32,803 nt of DNA from an uncultured Planctomycetales bacterium (lineage in GTDB: Bacteria > Omnitrophota > Gorgyraeia > Aquiviventales > Aquiviventaceae). Shown here in pieces: positions 11,561-32,803 of the stretch. The notes below the pieces were generated by a model. The model was given only the letters and a program-made list of their open reading frames with translations, did not search any database and was not told the origin of the DNA. The stretch's first letter is position 1; every line of letters starts with the position of its first letter. The stretch is taken from assembly GCA_964401235.1 (NCBI GenBank), contig CAYNXT010000002.1:1-32803 (forward strand), given 5' to 3'. Both the position numbers and the translations under genes were made by a program.

Positions 11561-12185
11561 TCGGCACGTGATCGGATCACGCGATCCGATCGAGGTGGCC
11601 TCAGCCGCCATTCAGGGAGGCGCCGATGTCCTCCAGCTCAGAGATAAGCTTTCCTCCGACTCGGATCTGCTCAAAGATGCCCGCCGCCTGCGCGCCCTCA
11701 CGCAAGCATCCAGCATCCCGTTCATCCTCAATGATCGCGTCGCGATTGCCGCCCAAGTCGGCGCTGACGGCGTGCACGTTGGGCAAGAGGACATGCCGAT
11801 TGCCGAAGCGCGCAAGCAGTTGGCGCCTGGAACGCTGATCGGCAAGTCGACCCACACTCTTGAGCAAGCCCTGGCGGCCGGACAGGAAGGGGCGGACTAT
11901 CTTGGCTGCGGACCGATCTTTTCTACTCCCACCAAACCGGCGTACGGCTGCGTGGGAACCGCGCTGATTACCCAGGTGATGGCGCGTGTGACCATTCCGG
12001 TCGTCTGTATCGGAGGCATTGAGCCGGCAACGCTCAACGAGGCCTTGCAGGCCGGAGCTCGCTGCGTGGCCGTGGTCAGGGCTGTGTGTGCTGCGCCTGA
12101 TCCTGAAGCCGCCACCCGCGGCTTGAAAACCATAATCCGCAATACTCCACAATTCATTCGCACAGGTGTGGTTCCCCCATTATAA
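11535..12185 (+). CDS. thiE: Thiamine-phosphate synthase
   Basis: LYVIVD..., GADVLQLRDK, GADGVHVGQED, GKSTH, GADYLGCGPIFSTPTK, VCIGGI. Confidence 0.9.
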   Translation: MWQLYVIVDRHVIGSRDPIEVASAAIQGGADVLQLRDKLSSDSDLLKDARRLRALTQASSIPFILNDRVAIAAQVGADGVHVGQEDMPIAEARKQLAPGTLIGKSTHTLEQALAAGQEGADYLGCGPIFSTPTKPAYGCVGTALITQVMARVTIPVVCIGGIEPATLNEALQAGARCVAVVRAVCAAPDPEAATRGLKTIIRNTPQFIRTGVVPPL

Positions 12186-12186
12186 T
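12157..12186 (+). promoter_or_regulatory. Putative promoter for tRNA-Gly inside the thiE 3' end
   Basis: TTCGCA (12157-12162), an 18-nt spacer, and exact TATAAT (12181-12186), 14 nt before the tRNA 5' end. Confidence 0.4.
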
Positions 12187-12199
12187 ATCGCCATGCAAT

Positions 12200-12271
12200 G
12201 CGGGCGTAGTTCAGCGGTAGAACGTCAGCTTCCCAAGCTGAATGTCGTGGGTTCGACTCCCATCGCCCGCT
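12200..12271 (+). tRNA. tRNA-Gly (anticodon CCC)
   Basis: Hand-folded cloverleaf: acceptor GCGGGCG/CGCCCGC, D arm GTTC/GAAC, anticodon stem TCAGC/GCTGA with loop TTCCCAA, T arm GTGGG-TTCGACT-CCCAT, discriminator T. No CCA is encoded. Followed by a T8 run. Confidence 0.9.
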
Positions 12272-12861
12272 GGTTTTTTTTCTCGTTGTGGGTTGCCGGC
12301 TGCGCCGCAACCGACACCACCACGCTTGCGCCACTACCACCTTCAACTTCACGGCCTACGCTCCAAGGCTCCTATCATGTGGTTCAACGGGGCGAAACGC
12401 TTTGGCGCATCGCGCGCTCATATGGGCTGGAGCCACGTGTGCTGGCTGCGGTCAACCGGATCCCGAGCGCGACCCAGCTCCAAGTCGGGCAACGGCTCTA
12501 TCTCCCGTTGCCCCCGGAGACGCGGCAGTTCTTATGGCCGCTGCGAGGTGCAGTCAAACCGGCAAGTCGCTCAACCGGCGTCGCGATCCTTGCACCGACC
12601 GGCAGCTTGGTGCGAGCCTCGCGCAGCGGACGCGTAGCGGTGGCGACCCATCAGCTTTCCGGTTGGGGGAAAACCGTCGTGCTGGATCATTTTGATGGAT
12701 ATCTCACCGTGTATGCAGGGCTGAACCGCATCCTGGTGAGTCCTGGTGGAGATCTTCGGCAGGGCATGCCTCTGGGAAGCGTCGGCGATCGCGCCCTGTT
12801 TTTTGAGATCCGTGATGGTGCCGTGGCAAAAAACACCCTAGCCTTATTGCCAAAGGATTGA
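12247..12861 (+). CDS. NlpD-like lipoprotein: LysM domain plus degenerate LytM (M23) domain
   Basis: LysM YHVVQRGETLWRIARSYG...LQVGQRLYLP. The M23-like C-terminus lacks the HxxxD and HxH metal ligands (STGVAI, LFFEIRDG). Lipobox WVAGC. The start is uncertain: GTG 12247 gives a full signal peptide but overlaps the tRNA, while TTG 12286 gives none. Confidence 0.78.
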   Translation: MGSTPIARWFFFSLWVAGCAATDTTTLAPLPPSTSRPTLQGSYHVVQRGETLWRIARSYGLEPRVLAAVNRIPSATQLQVGQRLYLPLPPETRQFLWPLRGAVKPASRSTGVAILAPTGSLVRASRSGRVAVATHQLSGWGKTVVLDHFDGYLTVYAGLNRILVSPGGDLRQGMPLGSVGDRALFFEIRDGAVAKNTLALLPKD

Positions 12862-22740: not shown

Positions 22741-22817
22741 CGGGGCGTGGCGTAGCTTGGTAGCGCGCGTGAATGGGGTTCACGAGGTCCTGGGTTCAAA
22801 TCCCAGCGCCCCGACCA
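22741..22817 (+). tRNA. tRNA-Pro (anticodon GGG)
   Basis: Hand-folded: acceptor CGGGGCG/CGCCCCG (C1:G72), A73, encoded CCA, anticodon stem CGTGA/TCACG with loop ATGGGGT, T arm CTGGG-TTCAAAT-CCCAG. Confidence 0.9.
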
Positions 22818-22827
22818 TCGAAATACA

Positions 22828-22855
22828 GTGAAAAGTGTAAAGTTGAAAGTGGAAA
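22828..22855. repeat. Heptanucleotide tandem array (GTGAAAA GTGTAAA GTTGAAA GTGGAAA)
   Basis: Four contiguous 7-nt units starting 11 nt after the tRNA-Pro 3' end. Confidence 0.8.
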
Positions 22856-25445: not shown

Positions 25446-26594
25446 ATGAAATATCTGATCATCCGCTGTGAAGACCATGCCTGCCAGGGAACCCATGTCG
25501 CTTCGCTGCTTGAAGGAGCGAAAGCCGTCCATTTGCAGCATCTTGCCCAGGCCGGAGCGGCCGGCCTCATTCGGCAAAAGAGTTCCGAGCAATGGTGCGA
25601 CCGATTCGCCTTGCACCGTGCATTGTTCGGCCTGGGTCCAGAGGATCTAGAGGCCTCGGCCGGTTGGTGTTACGCTGCCGGCACCAATCTTCGGCCCTCG
25701 GCTCAGGAAACCGTGTGGTGTTGCGATTTTGTGACTCAGCGGGATGGCGCTGTTGCCGACGCGACAGCAGGCAATATCCAAACAAAAGAGAGCAACCTCC
25801 TGCTGCAGGCGCTCAATGCGGAGCTTGGATCAGACACGAGGCGCTGGGAGGTAGGGCATGGTTCGCGCCATGTGTTTCTCACCAGCGATCCAGCGCTCAG
25901 CGTGCAGCATGCCGCGGTGCGGAGCGGCCCGGACGTCTTGATCGGCCAATCATGGAAGAAGCATTTGCCTGATGATCCATTGCGGGAACCATTGCAACGG
26001 CTCATGGAGCAAGCAGCCTTGGTACTTGAGCGGCATGATATTAACCGCGTGCGATTAGATCTTGGTGAGAATCCGGCCAATCTGGCATGGTTCTGGGGGG
26101 CCGCGCCACGGCAAGAGCCGCGTAAATTTTCAGATCGCACCGGGCTCTCGGGAGCGGTGATATCGAGCAGCTTTCCCATGCGGGGGTTTGCCACGTGCCT
26201 TGGATTGGAGTGGCGACCGGGTTTGACATCCTTTGACGAGACGGCATTCGAGAAACTATTGCAAGAACTCACCACGCTGTTGCAGCGTCACGACTGGGTC
26301 TATGTGCATGTGCGAGTGGACAGTGCGGATCCGGTCGATCGCTTATGTGCCGTCGAACGGGTCGACCAGCTGCTGCTCAAGCCGCTGACCGGCTGGTTGC
26401 CCGAGCAAGGGCCCTGGCGCATGGCCGCGGTGATTGATGAACGATCCGTCTGTTCGCCCCTGTGGGTCGCCATTGGCAGCGGGCTTCCGCAACAAGGGGT
26501 CGAGCACTTAAGCCCTGAGCGGCTGGCCCAGAGCTCATTGAACATGAACAACGGCTTAGAGCTCTTTGCGTGGCTCACACAGAAGGGCGAATGA
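25446..26594 (+). CDS. Cofactor-independent phosphoglycerate mutase (ApgM)-like metalloenzyme-superfamily protein; candidate non-canonical homoserine kinase
   Basis: 382 aa with an MKYLII... N-terminus and overall ApgM-like layout. Lies between thrC and lysC. ATGA-coupled to lysC. Confidence 0.65.
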
Positions 26595-27820
26595 AACGAC
26601 GGCTCATTGTGCAAAAATTCGGCGGCAGCTCCGTCGCGAATCCTGAACGGATCAAACGGGTGGCCCAGCGGGTTGTGGACACCAAGCGCAAAGGCGCCAA
26701 CGTGGTGGTGGTCGTCTCGGCGCTGGGCGATACCACGGATGAGCTGCTGCAGCTCGCCTCGCAAATTACCCAGCAACCAGCCGAGCGCGAGCTCGACATG
26801 CTCATGGCGACCGGAGAGCAGGTGTCCGTAGCACTGCTGGCGATGGCTATTCATGAGCTCGGGGAGGACGCCGTGTCGTTTACCGGCGCACAGGTCGGCA
26901 TCTTGACCGATGGCATCCATACCAAGGCCAAAATTGTGGATATTCAGACCCAGCGGATTGTGCAGGAGCTGCCGAAGGGTCGCATTGTTATCGTGGCCGG
27001 TTTCCAAGGGGTGAACCTCAATCAAGATATCACCACGCTCGGCCGCGGCGGCTCTGACCTGACGGCCGTCGCACTGGCCAAGGCTCTTGGCGCGGATCTG
27101 TGCGAGATTTATACCGATGTGGATGGCGTCTACACCGCCGATCCGCGCATCGTCCCCGATGCTAAGAAGCTTGCGGCCATCAGCTACGATGAAATGCTCG
27201 AGATGGCATCGCTGGGGGCGCAAGTCATGCAGGCGCGATCCATCTTTGTCGCCAAGCGGTTTGAGATTCCCATTCATGTGCGATCCAGCTTTTCACTTCG
27301 GGAGGGCACGATGATCACCAAGTCGGTCAAGGCGATGGAGGACATCGTCGTCAGCGGCGTGACGCTGCAGAAGGACGAAGCCAAGGTCACGATTCGCGAT
27401 GTGCCGGACAAGCCTGGGATGGCTGCGGAGATCTTCCGGGAATTAGCTAGCAAAGACATCAACGTGGACATGATCGTCCAAAACGTCAGCCGCGAGGGCT
27501 CAACCGACTTGTCCTTTACCGTCATCAAGAGCGACTTGCCATCGACGCTACGCGTGACACGAAGCGTGTCGCACCGCATCGGGGCAGGCGAAGTGACGAC
27601 GGATGAGGGGGTGGCCAAGCTTTCGATTGTGGGAATCGGCATGCGCAGCCACTCGGGCATCGCGGCGAAGATGTTCGAAGCCATGGCGCGAGAGCGCATC
27701 AATATCGAAATGATCTCAACCTCGGAAATTAAGATCTCCTGCATCATCCGCCGCCAGCACGCCGAGCGGGCGATGCGCGTGATCCATAAAGCGTTTGAGC
27801 TTCGCAAACAGAGAACGTGA
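26591..27820 (+). CDS. lysC: Aspartate kinase (with two C-terminal ACT domains)
   Basis: [17 protein letters not shown](L)[29 protein letters not shown]. Confidence 0.93.
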
Positions 27821-27827
27821 AATGGTT

Positions 27828-27919
27828 TCACCGCAAAAACGCAAAATTTCGCAAAGACGCAAAAAGGTGCACTAATGTTCTTTTTTGCGTTTTCGCGGTC
27901 TTTTGCGTTTTGGCGGTGA
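27828..27919. repeat. Long imperfect inverted repeat (40-nt arms, 12-nt loop) built from CGCAAAA-like units; possible terminator or attenuator
   Basis: The left arm (27828-27867) matches the reverse complement of the right arm (27880-27919) at 33 of 40 positions by hand alignment. Confidence 0.8.
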
Positions 27920-27928
27920 TATCGTGCG

Positions 27929-29539
27929 ATGTCATCGATTCAACTCTATGACACGACGCTCCGCGATGGAGCACAGACCGAAGGCATCTCGTATTCCGTC
28001 ACTGACAAGTTGCGGATTACGGAGAAGCTCGATGCCCTCGGCTTGCACTATATTGAAGGGGGCTGGCCGGGCTCCAATCCCAAGGATGCGGAATTTTTTC
28101 GCCTGGCTAAACGCCTTCGATTCACCACTGCCCGCTTAGCCGCGTTCGGCAGCACCCGGCGAGCCGACACCGCAACTGCCGATGCGAATCTCAACGCGTT
28201 GCTCAAGGCCGAAACCAAGACCCTCACCATCTTTGGCAAGAGCTGGGATCTGCACGTCCGGGATGTTTTAAAGGTGAGTCTGTCGGATAACTTGAAAATG
28301 ATCGAAGACTCGGTCGCGTACCTGAGACGGCACGACCGCGAGGTGGTCTACGACGCCGAGCATTTCTTCGATGGATACAAGGACGATGCTGACTATGCGG
28401 TGAAGACTCTGAAGGCCGCCTTAGCCGGCGGAGCCAGCGCGATCGTCTTGTGTGATACCAATGGTGGCAGCCTGCCCAGCGAGATCACGAAGATGATTGC
28501 CGAGGTGAAACGCCACGTTCCGGTGGCCATGGGCATCCACACGCATAACGATAGCGACCTTGCGGTGGCCAATGCACTGGCGGCCGTTGAGGCGGGTTGC
28601 GTCCAGGTGCAGGGGACGATCAATGGGTATGGAGAGCGCTGTGGCAATGCCAACCTCGTCTCGCTTATCGCCATCTTGAAACTGAAAAAAGGGATCAACT
28701 GCTTGCCGGACGCGAAGTTGAAACAGTTGACCGACACCTCGCGCTATGTCGCGGAAGTCAGCAACATGGCCCAGCATGCCAATCAACCGTTTGTCGGCTC
28801 GGCGGCATTCGCCCACAAGGGCGGGGTGCATGTCAACGCGGTTATGAAGAATCCCCGCACCTATGAGCATCTGGAGCCGAGCACCGTTGGCAATGAACGC
28901 AAAATCTTGGTCTCCGAGCTCTCAGGCCGCTCTTCGCTTGTGTTTAAAGCCAAGGATTTAGCGCTGGATCTTTCCAAAGAGACGCCTCAGGCCAAGCGGC
29001 TCCTCAAACTCTTACAGCGGTTGGAGCATGAAGGCTACCACTTCGAAGCCGCAGAGGGATCGCTGGAGCTTCTCCTCAAACGAGAGCTCAAAGAGGTTCG
29101 ACCCTTCTTTACGCTAGAGGGCTTCCGCATCATCATGGAGAAACGCGATCACCGTCTCACTTCAGAAGCCACCATCAAAGTGCGGGTCAACAAGGTGGTG
29201 GAGCATACCTCAGCCGAAGGTGATGGCCCGGTGAACGCGCTCGACAATGCCATTCGCAAGGCGCTCAAGCGCTTTTATCCCACGCTCTCTGAGATGCACC
29301 TGACCGATTTTAAGGTGCGCGTGCTCGATGAAAAAGCCGGCACCGCAGCGAAGGTACGCGTCCTGATCCAGTCCCAGGATGCGCATGATTCCTGGGGCAC
29401 GGTGGGTGTCTCGGAAAACATCATCGAAGCCAGCTGGCAAGCCCTCGTCGATTCGATTGAATATAAGCTGCTTAAGGACCAACGCTCAGCGTCTAGCGTA
29501 CAGCGTATAGCGTATAGAAAGAAATCGGCTACGAAATAG
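27929..29539 (+). CDS. cimA: (R)-citramalate synthase (LeuA/CimA family, long form)
   Basis: [39 protein letters not shown]-terminal LeuA-dimer regulatory domain. Confidence 0.85.
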
Positions 29540-29584
29540 TACGATGTCCCTATACGCTATTCGCTAAACGCTATACGCTAGTCC
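29481..29584. repeat. Inverted pair of heptanucleotide arrays (AGCGTAT)n ... (CTATACG)n
   Basis: Left units are aacgctc agcgtct agcgtac agcgtat agcgtat (29481-29515). Right units are ctatacg ctattcg ctaaacg ctatacg ctagtcc (29550-29584). CTAG occurs at 29493 and 29578. Confidence 0.9.
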
Positions 29585-29593
29585 TATGTTGTT

Positions 29594-32416
29594 ATGAATC
29601 AATTGCCTCCCCAATACAATCCTAAGGAAGTCGAGGAAGCCCGCTATCAGTGGTGGGAGTCCCAAGGTTTCTTTGCGGCCGATGTGGACCCGAAGCGCAA
29701 GCCGTACACCATCGTGATTCCTCCGCCCAATGTCACCGGCATTCTCCACATGGGCCATGCGCTCAACAATACGATCCAAGACATCCTGATCCGCCATAAA
29801 CGCATGCAAGGGTTCAACGCGCTCTGGGTCCCCGGCACTGATCATGCAGGGATCGCCACGCAAAACGTCGTCGAGAAATCACTCGCCAAGGAAGGCAAGC
29901 GCCGGCAAGACCTTGGCCGCGAAGAGTTCATCAAGCGCGTGTGGCAGTGGAAAGAGCAGTACGGCAATACGATCATCTATCAGCTAAAGCGGCTTGGCTC
30001 CTCCTGTGACTGGCGCCGCGCCCGCTTTACGATGGATGAGGGGTTATCTGAGGCCGTGCTAGAGGTGTTCGTCCAGCTCTACAACAAAGGGTTGATCTAC
30101 CGAGGCAACTATATCATCAACTGGTGCCCGCGCTGCCAAACCGCTCTGGCTGATGAAGAAGCGCCTCGCCGGCAAACCCAAGGCAAGCTCTACCACATTC
30201 GATATTCGCTGGAATTGGGTGAAGGGTTATCAGTTTTTCTTGAGGTGGCGACGACGCGACCAGAAACGATGCTTGGTGATACCGCCATTGCCGTCCATCC
30301 GAAGGACAAGCGATACAAATCGCTCATTGGCAAGCACGCGATCTTGCCATTAGTGAATCGAAAGCTCCCCGTCATTGCCGATGAGCTGGTGGACCGCGAA
30401 TTCGGCACCGGCGCGGTCAAAGTCACACCGGCCCATGATCCTGCAGACTTCCACATGGGCAAGAAGCACAAGCTCGAGTTCATCAACGTGATGACCGATG
30501 ACGCGCACATGACGAACGTCCCCAAAGCCTACGAAGGGTTAGACCGGTTTGAGTGCCGCAGCAAGCTCATTGTCGATCTTGAACAAGCTGGGTTCCTCGG
30601 AGCGATCGAGGAGCACCAACACAACGTGGGCCATTGCTACCGGTGTAACACGGTCGTGGAACCTCGGCTCAGCCCTCAATGGTTTGTAAAAATGAAGCCG
30701 CTCGCCAAACCGGCTCTTGAGGCGGTGAAGAAGAAAAAGATCACCTTTGCGCCGGCGCGCTGGACCAAAGTCTACCTCAACTGGATGGAGAACATCGAGG
30801 ACTGGTGCATCAGCCGTCAGATCTGGTGGGGCCATCGTATTCCGGTCTGGTATTGCGATACATGTCTTGGCCAGACCGGAGTGGAAAGTGGACAGTGGAA
30901 AGTGGAAAGCAAAACCGGTCGTCAAGCAGGAATTATCGTGTCGAAAAATCAACCTGCTGGATGTCCGGCTTGCGGCTCCACGAAGCTGCGTCAAGATGAA
31001 GATGTGCTCGACACTTGGTTCTCCTCATGGTTGTGGCCCTTTTCCACGCTAGGCTGGCCCAAAAAGACCAAGGACCTAGCCTACTTTTATCCCACCCATA
31101 CGCTGGTGACTGCGCAGGAGATCATCTTCTTCTGGGTCGCCCGCATGATCATGGCCGGTTATTTCTGCATGAAAGAACCCCCATTTACCAAGGTCTACAT
31201 TCACGGCACCGTGCGCGACATCACCGGCAAGAAGATGTCCAAATCATTGGGCAACATTATCGATCCGTTGCAGATCATCGACCAGTACGGCACCGATGCG
31301 CTGCGTTATACCTTGGTGACCTCAACCGCAATCGGCCAGGACGTGTTCCTCTCCGAGGAGCGGTTTACCGCCGGCCGCAATTTTGCCAACAAGCTCTGGA
31401 ACGCCACGCGGTTCATTCTGAGCGTTGCCGAAGGCTCTAGGCCGAAGGCCGAAGGCAAGCCTCCAGCCTCCAGCCTCCAGCCTCGAGCCCTCATGATTCC
31501 TGACCGTTGGATATTGTCTAAGCTGCAGCACACCATCACGCGAGTGACGAAATCGCTCGACCAGTTCCTGTTCAATGACGCGGCCACCGCTCTCTACGAT
31601 TTCTTATGGCACGACGTGTGCGACTGGTATCTCGAGATCGCGAAAGTTCAACTAGCTCCAAGCTCCAAGCTCCAAGCTTCAGCAGACACGTCCAGCCTGC
31701 AGCTTGAAGCCTGCAGCAACACCATCGGCATTTTGACTCACGTTCTTGACACGAGCCTGCGGCTGCTTCATCCCGTTATGCCGTTTGTGACTGAAGAACT
31801 CTGGCAGCAACTAGCAACAAGCAACAAGCAACAAGCAACACGGAAACCCGCAACTGTTGCTGGTCGCGTGTCGCATGTTGCTTCAATTATGGTGGCTGAG
31901 TGGCCCAAGGCCTCCAAGAAACTGATTGATGAGAAAGCCGAAGAGCAGTTCGAGCAGTTCAAGGCGGTCGTGGTCACGATCCGGAACACGAAGGCTGAAT
32001 TAAACGTCCCGCTCGATGCCAGGCCACCGGTACGACTCTCCAGCGCGCAGGCGCCTGTCAGGGCCTTCTTCGAAGCGCACCGGCCGCTTCTGCAGGTTTT
32101 AGCTGGGACCGGTGAGATTTCCGTGGAAGCCGCGCGCCAGCGCATCAAGCACGCCGCAGCGTCCGTCGTGGACGGCATTGAGGTGGTGATCCCGCTTGAG
32201 GGGATGATCGACCCGGCTAAGGAGCGCGGCCGGCTTGAACAGCGCATCACTGAGTTGACGAACCACGTCAAGCGACTCGAAGCACAGCTGGCGAACACAC
32301 AGTTTACCAAACGAGCCCCGAGGGACGTTGTGGAACAGACAAAGACCGCGTTGACCCAGGCCCGCGAGAACTTGAAAAAATCCTCGGAGCACCTGGCCGT
32401 CCTGCAGTCCATGTAG
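29594..32416 (+). CDS. valS: Valine--tRNA ligase
   Basis: PPPNVTGILHMGHA (HIGH), KMSKSLGN (KMSKS), QDEDVLDTWFSS, C-terminal coiled coil. Confidence 0.96.
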   Translation: MNQLPPQYNPKEVEEARYQWWESQGFFAADVDPKRKPYTIVIPPPNVTGILHMGHALNNTIQDILIRHKRMQGFNALWVPGTDHAGIATQNVVEKSLAKEGKRRQDLGREEFIKRVWQWKEQYGNTIIYQLKRLGSSCDWRRARFTMDEGLSEAVLEVFVQLYNKGLIYRGNYIINWCPRCQTALADEEAPRRQTQGKLYHIRYSLELGEGLSVFLEVATTRPETMLGDTAIAVHPKDKRYKSLIGKHAILPLVNRKLPVIADELVDREFGTGAVKVTPAHDPADFHMGKKHKLEFINVMTDDAHMTNVPKAYEGLDRFECRSKLIVDLEQAGFLGAIEEHQHNVGHCYRCNTVVEPRLSPQWFVKMKPLAKPALEAVKKKKITFAPARWTKVYLNWMENIEDWCISRQIWWGHRIPVWYCDTCLGQTGVESGQWKVESKTGRQAGIIVSKNQPAGCPACGSTKLRQDEDVLDTWFSSWLWPFSTLGWPKKTKDLAYFYPTHTLVTAQEIIFFWVARMIMAGYFCMKEPPFTKVYIHGTVRDITGKKMSKSLGNIIDPLQIIDQYGTDALRYTLVTSTAIGQDVFLSEERFTAGRNFANKLWNATRFILSVAEGSRPKAEGKPPASSLQPRALMIPDRWILSKLQHTITRVTKSLDQFLFNDAATALYDFLWHDVCDWYLEIAKVQLAPSSKLQASADTSSLQLEACSNTIGILTHVLDTSLRLLHPVMPFVTEELWQQLATSNKQQATRKPATVAGRVSHVASIMVAEWPKASKKLIDEKAEEQFEQFKAVVVTIRNTKAELNVPLDARPPVRLSSAQAPVRAFFEAHRPLLQVLAGTGEISVEAARQRIKHAAASVVDGIEVVIPLEGMIDPAKERGRLEQRITELTNHVKRLEAQLANTQFTKRAPRDVVEQTKTALTQARENLKKSSEHLAVLQSM
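30881..30908. repeat. Heptanucleotide array inside valS (GTGGAAA GTGGACA GTGGAAA GTGGAAA)
   Basis: Four contiguous 7-nt units, translated as VESGQWKVES. Flanked by accgg (30875) and accgg (30914). Confidence 0.85.
31427..31493. repeat. Two abutting heptanucleotide arrays inside valS (GCCGAAG-type x4, GCCTCCA-type x5)
   Basis: gccgaag gctctag gccgaag gccgaag / gcaa / gcctcca x3 gcctcga gccctca. Translated as AEGSRPKAEGKPPASSLQPRAL. Confidence 0.85.
31654..31716. repeat. Nine-unit heptad block inside valS (AGCTCCA x3, AGCTTCA ... CCTGCAG CTTGAAG CCTGCAG)
   Basis: 63 nt, equal to 9 x 7 nt and to 21 codons. Preceded by CTAG at 31652. Translated as LAPSSKLQASADTSSLQLEAC. Confidence 0.85.
31807..31883. 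repeat. Inverted heptad arrays inside valS (GCAACAA x5 ... TGTTGCT-type x4)
   Basis: Left units at 31807-31841, spacer, right units gttgctg gtcgcgt gtcgcat gttgctt at 31856-31883. CTAG at 31811. Translated as LATSNKQQATRKPATVAGRVSHVAS. Confidence 0.85.
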
Positions 32417-32420
32417 CCTG

Positions 32421-32803
32421 ATGGGAAGGGACTTGCTCGAGTTGACCCCCCAGACCGTCCGCCCGCTGATTCGCCGTGCCCTGATAGAGGACGCGGCGTT
32501 CCGAGACGCCACGTCCAGGACCGTCATCCCTAAGGAGCTGCGCATCCGCGCCCGCATCGTGGCGAAATCCCGTGGTGTGTTGGCTGGCGTCAAGGTGGCA
32601 GCACTCACGTTCACCACGGTGGATTCATCGCTACACTGCCGCCTCCATCTGCACTCTGGGGCGAAGCTCGCTCCAGGCAGTTCAATTCTGACGATCGAAG
32701 GCTCAGCGCGCTCCATCTTCGCGGCCGAGCGCGTGGCGCTGAATCTGCTCGGGCACCTGTCCGGGATCGCGACCCTGACCGCAGAGTTTGCGCGGCGGGT
32801 CAG
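32421..32803 (+). CDS. nadC: Nicotinate-nucleotide (quinolinate) pyrophosphorylase, 5' partial
   Basis: Open to the window end. ALIEDAAFRDATS...AKSRGVLAG...ILTIEGSARSIFAAERVALNLL is the NadC N-terminal pattern. Confidence 0.85.
   Translation, partial: MGRDLLELTPQTVRPLIRRALIEDAAFRDATSRTVIPKELRIRARIVAKSRGVLAGVKVAALTFTTVDSSLHCRLHLHSGAKLAPGSSILTIEGSARSIFAAERVALNLLGHLSGIATLTAEFARRV

Follow-up and report, generated by a model that had tools for sequence, protein, structure and literature searches.

Two groups of short repeats described in bacteria are close to the elements considered here. Rickettsia palindromic elements (RPEs) are small palindromic repeats that lie in frame in unrelated housekeeping genes and are translated into additional peptide stretches at positions compatible with the protein fold, with several families per genome (summarised in PMC10969869). 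The known heptanucleotide repeats include the cyanobacterial short tandemly repeated repetitive (STRR) sequences, the GGGAATC/GGGGAYT arrays of Xanthomonas and Nostoc and the TAACTGA arrays of Beggiatoaceae; these repeats are strongly over-represented, typically comprise about four copies, occasionally form inverted pairs and vary between related genomes (PMC4692102, PMC4679880). The present analysis concerns a 32,803-nt stretch of DNA (contig CAYNXT010000002.1 of assembly GCA_964401235.1, hereafter the window) from an uncultured bacterium of the GTDB lineage Omnitrophota, and in particular its valS gene for valyl-tRNA synthetase (ValRS), where four blocks built of tandem heptanucleotides are embedded in frame. 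These blocks are probably (we put the probability at about 0.68) copies or remnants of genome-specific families of small palindromic repeats whose arms are tandem heptanucleotides and which permissive loops of the enzyme tolerate as translated inserts.

The host gene was identified with confidence: its product scored 1223 bits against the NCBIfam model PRK05729 (cut-off 704) and aligned with Thermus thermophilus ValRS (1gax) over residues 3–930 (E 1.4e-231), and its translation contains the class I synthetase signatures PPPNVTGILHMGHALN and KKMSKSLGN. Tandem Repeats Finder (TRF) revealed five period-7 arrays within valS and three outside it (22827–22855, 29488–29517 and 29550–29580). An autocorrelation scan of the window found eight period-7 runs, against a mean of 0.08 in first-order Markov random sequences; the other periods from 4 to 15 gave zero or one run each, except for a harmonic at 14. 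Long simple sequence repeats of this unit size comprise at least three head-to-tail 7-nt copies and are commoner than chance, and the arrays, with 3.6–5.0 copies, show both properties. The valS gene makes up 8.6% of the window and holds five of the eight arrays; two further arrays form an element abutting its start, and the remaining genes are ordinary housekeeping genes without arrays. The features discussed below are as follows (S1 to S4 denote loop sites in ValRS, residue numbers are those of the window protein and percentages after copy numbers are TRF matches):

29594 to 32416, plus strand: valS (valine–tRNA ligase), 940 residues, reading frame intact; host gene of four elements.
30880 to 30909, plus strand: element E1 (site S1, residues ~430–439), a lone AGTGGAA array (4.3 copies, 91%, TRF score 53) with no inverted partner, encoding GVESGQWKVES.
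31427 to 31493, plus strand: element E2 (site S2, residues ~612–634), an imperfect palindrome found by TRF and folding; arm 1 of GCCGAAG units at 31427–31456 (4.3 copies), arm 2 of AGCCTCC units at 31458–31493 (TRF array 31458–31489, 4.6 copies, 96%).
31654 to 31717, plus strand: element E3 (site S3, residues ~688–708), found by TRF and folding; arm 1 of AGCTCCA units at 31654–31681 (TRF array 31654–31678, 3.6 copies, 100%), a loop, and a degenerate inverted arm TCCAGCC TGCAGCT TGAAGCC TGCAGC at 31690–31717.
31806 to 31883, plus strand: element E4 (site S4, residues ~738–763; TRF score 63); arm 1 of AGCAACA units at 31806–31840 (5.0 copies, 96%), a 14-nt loop at 31841–31854, and an inverted arm TGTTGCT GGTCGCG TGTCGCA TGTTGCT at 31855–31883.
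29475 to 29585, strand not assigned: element E0, a heptad palindrome between a leuA/cimA-like gene and valS; arm 1 of AGCGTAT units at 29488–29517, 32 nt between, arm 2 of CTATACG units at 29550–29580 (TRF; inverted repeats I1/I2, 87% complementary).
22827 to 22855, plus strand: a degenerate array AGTGAAA AGTGTAA AGTTGAA AGTGGAA that shares its unit family and orientation with E1 (TRF period 7, 4.1 copies, 81%).

An earlier note on this DNA described the four valS blocks as strictly 7-nt periodic. TRF and autocorrelation both confirm the arrays, but the periodicity is not strict across the whole of blocks 2–4, each of which consists of two arms of different, roughly complementary heptads around a loop. 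This build is reflected in single-strand folding, where each element was compared with its dinucleotide shuffles: the minus-strand energies were −51.3 kcal/mol for E2 (z −5.4), −38.3 for E3 (z −4.2), −40.7 for E4 (z −4.65) and −58.0 for E0 (z −7.9), and the plus-strand energies were −30.8 (z −1.75), −21.4 (z −2.7), −30.4 (z −2.9) and −48.0 (z −5.9), respectively, so that the z-scores of the palindromic elements lie between −4.2 and −7.9 for the minus strand and between −1.75 and −5.9 for the plus strand. The arms of E4 form an inverted repeat of 28 nt (I3, 82% complementary), and the inverted arm of E3 contains a period-14 run (31694–31717 in the autocorrelation scan). E1 forms a hairpin on neither strand (z −0.5 and −0.7), its best inverted partner having 6/14 mismatches. 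Over all fetched loci, 58 array clusters reach 45 nt or more, and 50 of these are hairpin-like.

The phenomenon extends beyond valS. Arm 1 of E0 supplies the final ~17 codons of the LeuA/CimA-type open reading frame upstream (stop codon at 29537–29539), whose HMGL-like and LeuA_dimer Pfam domains end at residue 513 of 536, and arm 2 stops 13 nt short of the valS ATG; heptad hairpins directly upstream of the valS match were also found in L001, L082, L086, L088 and L099 (L numbers denote fetched loci). The degenerate array at 22827–22855 begins 10 nt past a tRNA-Pro(GGG) gene (22741–22817), upstream of the homoserine dehydrogenase gene. The occurrence of the same kinds of unit in intergenic DNA (22827; 29488/29550), together with wholly different orthologue peptides at the same loop, bears out the view of the earlier note that the periodicity belongs to the DNA level. 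The window contains one further intergenic palindrome (27828–27919, between an aspartokinase-like gene at 26570–27820 and the leuA/cimA-like gene at 27929–29539), with 38-nt arms, 84% complementary, and a 16-nt loop; its build is like that of the heptad elements, and its arms are periodic at about 8–10 nt (CGCAAAA-type units).

The positions of the elements in the protein are restricted. Protein alignment mapped all 56 valS array clusters from 20 distinct genomes to five loop sites, which are positions of length variation or alignment gaps in other ValRS:

S0, window residue ~210: 16 clusters.
S1, window residue ~435: 15 clusters.
S2, window residue ~620: 13 clusters.
S3, window residue ~695: 6 clusters.
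S4, window residue ~750: 6 clusters.

In the window S1 to S4 are filled and S0 has no array. The peptides that the earlier note quoted for the blocks agree with the valS translation, and the blocks do sit between the conserved motifs it named; its statement that other ValRS have short variable loops there is matched by gaps of 14, 11, 16 and 19 residues in the 1gax reference at the four blocks. The blocks are lineage-specific additions, as it had proposed: at precisely these places the protein is shorter in T. thermophilus and in orthologues that have no arrays (L008, L081, L089 and others). An AlphaFold2 model of the window ValRS, made from 96 homologues (mean predicted local distance difference test score, pLDDT, 88.6; predicted template modelling score, pTM, 0.86), has low confidence at each block, with pLDDT of 51 at residues 431–440, 65 and 66 at 611–630, 64 at 691–700, and 72 and 46 at 741–760 (46 at 751–760). 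Values below 50 occur only at residues 430–432 and 755–760; further low-confidence stretches are 41–50, 81–90 and 541–560. The modelled secondary structure at the four blocks is coil or an extension of flanking helices, the latter at S3 and S4, and the alignment gaps combined with this low-confidence coil or helix extension at all four blocks suggest that the elements occupy loops compatible with the fold. Seven distinct clade orthologues (L003, L008, L010, L081, L089, L093 and L094) have no arrays and keep an intact, shorter ValRS, so the elements are dispensable for the enzyme; ValRS length varies with the arrays from 880 to 996 residues. With arrays far above chance frequency in the window and no homologous peptides common to the orthologues, the proposal of nucleotide-level elements inserted or expanded and tolerated in loops of an essential enzyme is supported; the earlier note had missed the palindromic build, the families of copies inside single genomes, how widely the elements occur in Omnitrophota and Fervidibacter, and the evidence for copying beyond local expansion. 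At S2, the valS inserts of L001 and L003 measure 126 and 138 nt and show no heptad periodicity; they fold as long hairpins (plus-strand z −2.6 and −4.6) and are possibly another palindromic element, or decayed or nested heptad elements.

The closest ValRS genes belong to metagenome-assembled genomes (MAGs) of Candidatus Omnitrophota with 55–67% G+C; they are 65–70% identical in species-representative genomes and 75–77% identical on metagenome contigs (tblastn best segment), the exact protein was found once in the protein collection, with a next-best match of 75% identity, and the closest by pairwise alignment is L100 (80%). Most members of this high-GC clade have period-7 arrays in valS, and such arrays also occur in the valS of lower-GC Omnitrophota and Fervidibacter/Armatimonadota; of the other lineages fetched, Firmicutes included, nearly all have a valS without them. 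The density of period-7 arrays is 0.436/kb in the high-GC Omnitrophota clade versus 0.035/kb in unrelated genomes, and periods 5, 6 and 8–11 reach 0.018/kb or less in the same clade. In 29 non-redundant loci (285 kb), the density is 0.98/kb in valS, 0.99/kb in intergenic DNA and 0.14/kb in other coding DNA, so that valS is as permissive as non-coding DNA and 7-fold above other coding DNA. It may be favoured as a large enzyme with several loops of known variable length, and possibly by preferential re-insertion or conversion at occupied sites. The presence of arrays is a genome-level trait: the flanks are array-free in 8 of the 10 loci without valS arrays and contain arrays in 17 of the 23 loci with them. 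In Fervidibacter/Armatimonadota (L056, L057, L063, L157–L159), valS has (GGGACGA)n arrays of about four units at positions matching S0–S4, some with inverted CCC-rich partners (L158:7637–7708); with their G3 tracts these units are formally G-quadruplex motifs, and the arrays represent an independent recurrence in a second phylum. An AAAGTGT-type array, resembling the AGTGGAA type, was observed at S1 of the distant Omnitrophota locus L011 (4342–4366).

Comparison of the relatives revealed families of copies. At a given loop, different genomes have different heptad units, which encode unrelated peptides, and the unit families of one genome are common to valS, the neighbouring nadC and intergenic DNA. 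In L088, the elements at S1 and S4 are identical at 74 of 74 nt, loop sequence included; L005 has two pairs of near-identical elements at different sites, and similar cases occur in L009, L092 and L096. Elements at different sites of one genome had a mean normalised local-alignment score of 0.45, versus 0.27 for the same site in different genomes and 0.21 otherwise. The valS genes of L083 and L096, 87.6% identical at the DNA level, provide a view of turnover: one element was inherited by both, one site is occupied in L096 and empty in L083, and one array has changed in essentially every unit, (CATTCGA)n versus (CACTCGA)n, with a similar unit count, which is concerted evolution. L083 also has a 33-nt GC-rich in-frame insertion (CCCCGGCCCGCCGACAAAAATCGCCGGGGCGGG), absent from L096, nested in a heptad array (alignment columns 2108–2219), which recalls the small dispersed repeats nested in Nostoc heptamer arrays. 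An apparent frameshift in the valS of L007 was rejected, since the long tblastn span consists of an intact gene and a separate downstream fragment; the fragment (L007:6223–6378), ~350 nt downstream of the intact valS, duplicates ValRS residues 843–894 (48% identity to the window protein).

These observations are best accommodated by small palindromic repeat families with the following life history. An element is ~65–80 nt long, with arms of ~4–5 heptads each, roughly reverse-complementary, around a loop of 5–15 nt, and each high-GC Omnitrophota genome has its own few unit families, located in intergenic DNA and in a few permissive loops (five of ValRS and two of NadC, along with the C-terminal end of the LeuA-like protein). 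New copies may arise via transposition or ectopic gene conversion, and the arrays may be homogenised by replication slippage and arm-to-arm correction. Copies in genes would persist only where the frame is kept, the sense reading is stop-free and the sense strand is T-poor; a T-poor sense strand with heptads read in three phases leads to hydrophilic peptides rich in P, S, G, R, A, Q and T, which would be translated and form disordered loops on the surface, affecting the enzyme little. The elements are best regarded as loop-remodelling DNA, selfish or neutral, and not as a functional part of ValRS.

Several points weigh against this reading. Within the window only AGTGGAA occurs twice, and the other units are all different, a weak direct sign of recent copying here; the case rests on the relatives. 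The genome, metagenome and protein collections contained no same-species sequence of the window, and in L092 and L098, the most similar pair of relatives (98.1% identical), the arrays are themselves identical; no strain variation was seen. Neither a target-site duplication nor a terminal motif was found at the flanks of the identical L088 copies or at the filled and empty sites of L083/L096, and the window has no transposase; the argument for mobility comes only from copy identity and presence/absence. The support for translation, drawn from frame, stop codons and composition, is indirect. The net length gain at S2 and S3 over array-free orthologues is 11–16 residues, versus ~22 for an element, which does not correspond to clean insertions. 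The nadC gene presents a further difficulty. This gene lies downstream of valS, and the window holds only its first 127 codons (32421–32803); in relatives, nadC has two heptad arrays in two different loops, 170–200 nt apart, flanking the conserved catalytic VEVEV..ILLDN segment. In four of six genomes the two arrays are mutually reverse-complementary, each genome having its own unit, and in the predicted fold the complementary arrays pair over 16–32 bp across the two strands. Such pairs are beyond the reach of a single insertion of a preformed palindrome:

L002, 6453 to 6673: nadC array pair.
L091, 9440 to 9672: nadC array pair.
L095, 4059 to 4280: nadC array pair.
L097, 9284 to 9511: nadC array pair.

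The nadC pairs bring to the fore a different explanation, which we regard as unlikely overall, namely a dedicated, undescribed process that writes or maintains paired complementary heptad arrays, in place of transposon-like copies. Candidates would be hairpin-templated synthesis or correction, or an enzyme recognising 7-nt units. The targets of such a process would be intergenic DNA and the permissive loops of essential genes, in two phyla or more. It would hold the arms complementary even where ~170 nt of conserved coding DNA separate them, as in the nadC genes of the four loci listed above, and would continuously supply new disordered protein loops.

Pure in situ microsatellite expansion, where native loop codons expand by slippage and the inverted arm arises by local template switching with no movement between sites, appears improbable. 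Among long simple repeats, those with heptanucleotide units are the most over-represented in many bacteria, and polymerase slippage has been proposed for them (PMC4679880, PMC4692102); a change in essentially every unit, as between L083 and L096, is what slippage would be expected to produce, and both the differences among the window units and the net loop gain below element length agree with local origin. Expansion confined to one site is, however, hard to reconcile with 74-nt copies identical through the loop at two valS sites of L088, with the near-identical pairs in L005, L009 and L092, and with unit families common to valS, nadC and the intergenic DNA of one genome; filled and empty sites between genomes 88% identical and the presence or absence of arrays at the level of whole genomes also speak against it.

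The hairpins could instead be functional nucleic-acid structures (cis-regulatory mRNA, antisense RNA, or cruciform or G-quadruplex DNA) that control valS expression or replication and are held by structural selection. Many genomes do have hairpins, entirely different in sequence, at these five sites and immediately upstream of the start codon, the nadC arrays pair across 170 nt, and units of some relatives and of Fervidibacter contain G3 tracts (GGGTCAA, GGGGCAG, GGGACGA), in about four copies, like the G-quadruplex-forming heptamers of Xanthomonas and Nostoc (PMC4692102). The folding is also asymmetric: of the 39 hairpin-like elements that lie in plus-strand genes, 29 fold better as antisense and 6 as sense strand, and the minimum-energy folds contain 80 G.U pairs in antisense versus 29 in sense (binomial p 1e-6, the elements not being independent). 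The better minus-strand folding had suggested an antisense functional RNA; this idea was downgraded, as depletion of T in the sense strand and avoidance of hydrophobic residues account for the asymmetry.

In the sense strand of the arrays the frequency of A is 0.229 versus 0.136 for T, where a true palindrome would give A = T; a T-to-C change in one arm leaves A.C mismatches when the mRNA folds and G.U pairs when the antisense strand does. As the heptads are read in three phases, each T falls on codon position 2 once per three units. Hydrophobic residues make up 16% of the array-encoded residues versus 34.5% in the rest of ValRS, and an antisense reading would give 30.6% along with 4.4% stops. 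The consensus unit gives a sense-strand stop in 35 of 203 coding arrays; a stop on at least one strand was found for 27 of 34 intergenic arrays. The predicted peptides of the window ValRS include VESGQWKVESK and AEGKPPASSLQPR, and those of Fervidibacter are of the GTRDE type. Frame, stop and composition evidence together suggest that the elements are translated, and selection acting on the translated peptide is the best reading of the strand asymmetry; selection against mRNA hairpins of very high stability may contribute, inseparably from the peptide effect. Mutational bias was rejected as a cause, because it would put the G.U pairs on the sense strand, the opposite of the observation: C-to-T deamination of an exposed sense or leading strand is expected to yield sense-strand G.U pairs.

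Once the asymmetry is assigned to the peptide level, a structural function becomes quite doubtful. Many orthologues are wholly without elements, the same elements occur in unrelated genes and intergenic DNA, and the window units have no G3 tracts. Rfam searches of the window with gathering and permissive thresholds brought only two tRNAs to the gathering score, the best match in the valS region being a chance miRNA match (E 0.95); promoter and terminator scans gave chance-level signals, and E0 is not a canonical terminator.

Selection for the protein insert itself, with the loops as lineage-specific functional extensions of ValRS (a binding surface or linker) and an incidental 7-nt periodicity, is very unlikely. 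The inserts are in frame and the peptides hydrophilic, and the model extends flanking helices into the insert at S3 and S4; against this, orthologue peptides at the same loop are unrelated, the repeat is exact in DNA and is translated in three phases, non-coding DNA contains the same units, many orthologues have no insert, and the model confidence is low at all four blocks. An artefact of assembly or binning can practically be dismissed: although all sequences come from MAG or metagenome contigs, where short repeats can mislead assemblers, the same architecture recurs in dozens of independent assemblies from different projects, with contig names in different assembler styles (k141_, NODE_, scaffold_), always in frame and in the same five loops, and the arrays (~30 nt) are shorter than sequencing reads.

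Elsewhere in the window, a tRNA-Gly(CCC) gene (12200–12271) lies inside the listed open reading frame 12166..12861 (LysM/M23 peptidase), the true start of which must be downstream of the tRNA.

If the elements are indeed selfish palindromic DNA, the in-frame colonisation of essential genes by such DNA is not peculiar to Rickettsia and occurs, with a structurally different element, in uncultured Omnitrophota and Armatimonadota. The hosts would tolerate a hazard, since the 7-nt unit is not a multiple of three and slippage by one unit inside an essential gene means a frameshift. The elements also constitute a natural experiment, mapping the loops of ValRS and NadC that tolerate 10–27 extra residues, and would show the birth of disordered segments from non-coding repeats. 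For annotation, host genes may be flagged as low-complexity or suspect, and the length variation induced by arrays can confuse the alignment of orthologues. Genome-specific units and co-varying nadC arrays pose a mechanistic problem, namely what keeps the arms complementary and by what route copies spread.

A full-text literature search, with most subscription journals outside its coverage, found no account of heptad-armed palindromes in coding genes, nor of repeats in Omnitrophota or Fervidibacter. Several known systems share part of the features. [quoted passage not shown] Unlike in MITEs and REPs, no target-site duplication, terminal motif or partner transposase (REP-associated tyrosine transposase, RAYT, or one from an insertion sequence) was found here, and the arms are internally periodic; in particular, the target-site duplications and the terminal inverted repeats matching an autonomous insertion sequence that characterise MITEs are missing at the L088 and L083/L096 flanks and, as regards a transposase, in the window. 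REPs are extragenic by definition, whereas the present elements are largely intragenic, with varied units and no shared terminal motif such as the 5' GTAG type. Palindromic amphipathic repeat coding elements (PARCELs) are also palindromic DNA repeats translated within proteins; they are described (PMC2996958) as surface-protein repeats of Mollicutes and some eukaryotic microbes. They are not known to have heptanucleotide periodicity or to lie in conserved enzymes.

The known heptanucleotide repeats use one fixed unit, or a few, in each lineage, are mostly intergenic and occur less often than expected in coding DNA; the present elements, by contrast, have many units per genome, systematic pairing into palindromes and, in one essential gene, the same density as in intergenic DNA. 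The G-quadruplex type of heptamer, with a G tract of three or longer in each of about four units, does not match AGTGGAA, GCCGAAG, AGCCTCC, AGCTCCA, AGCAACA or AGCGTAT, which are without G3. RPEs are ~150 bp long, with a conserved non-periodic sequence and peptides conserved across species, whereas the present elements are ~65–80 nt long, their arms are tandem heptanucleotides and their units turn over between genomes; the hosts, too, are different, being free-living or episymbiotic Omnitrophota and Armatimonadota. As in RPEs, palindromic repeats (minus-strand z −4.2 to −7.9, E0 included) lie in frame in conserved genes, in an intact ValRS and also in nadC of relatives. The likeness is one of build and location, sequence homology not being expected, and by this analogy the elements resemble Rickettsia palindromic elements combined with heptamer repeat arrays.

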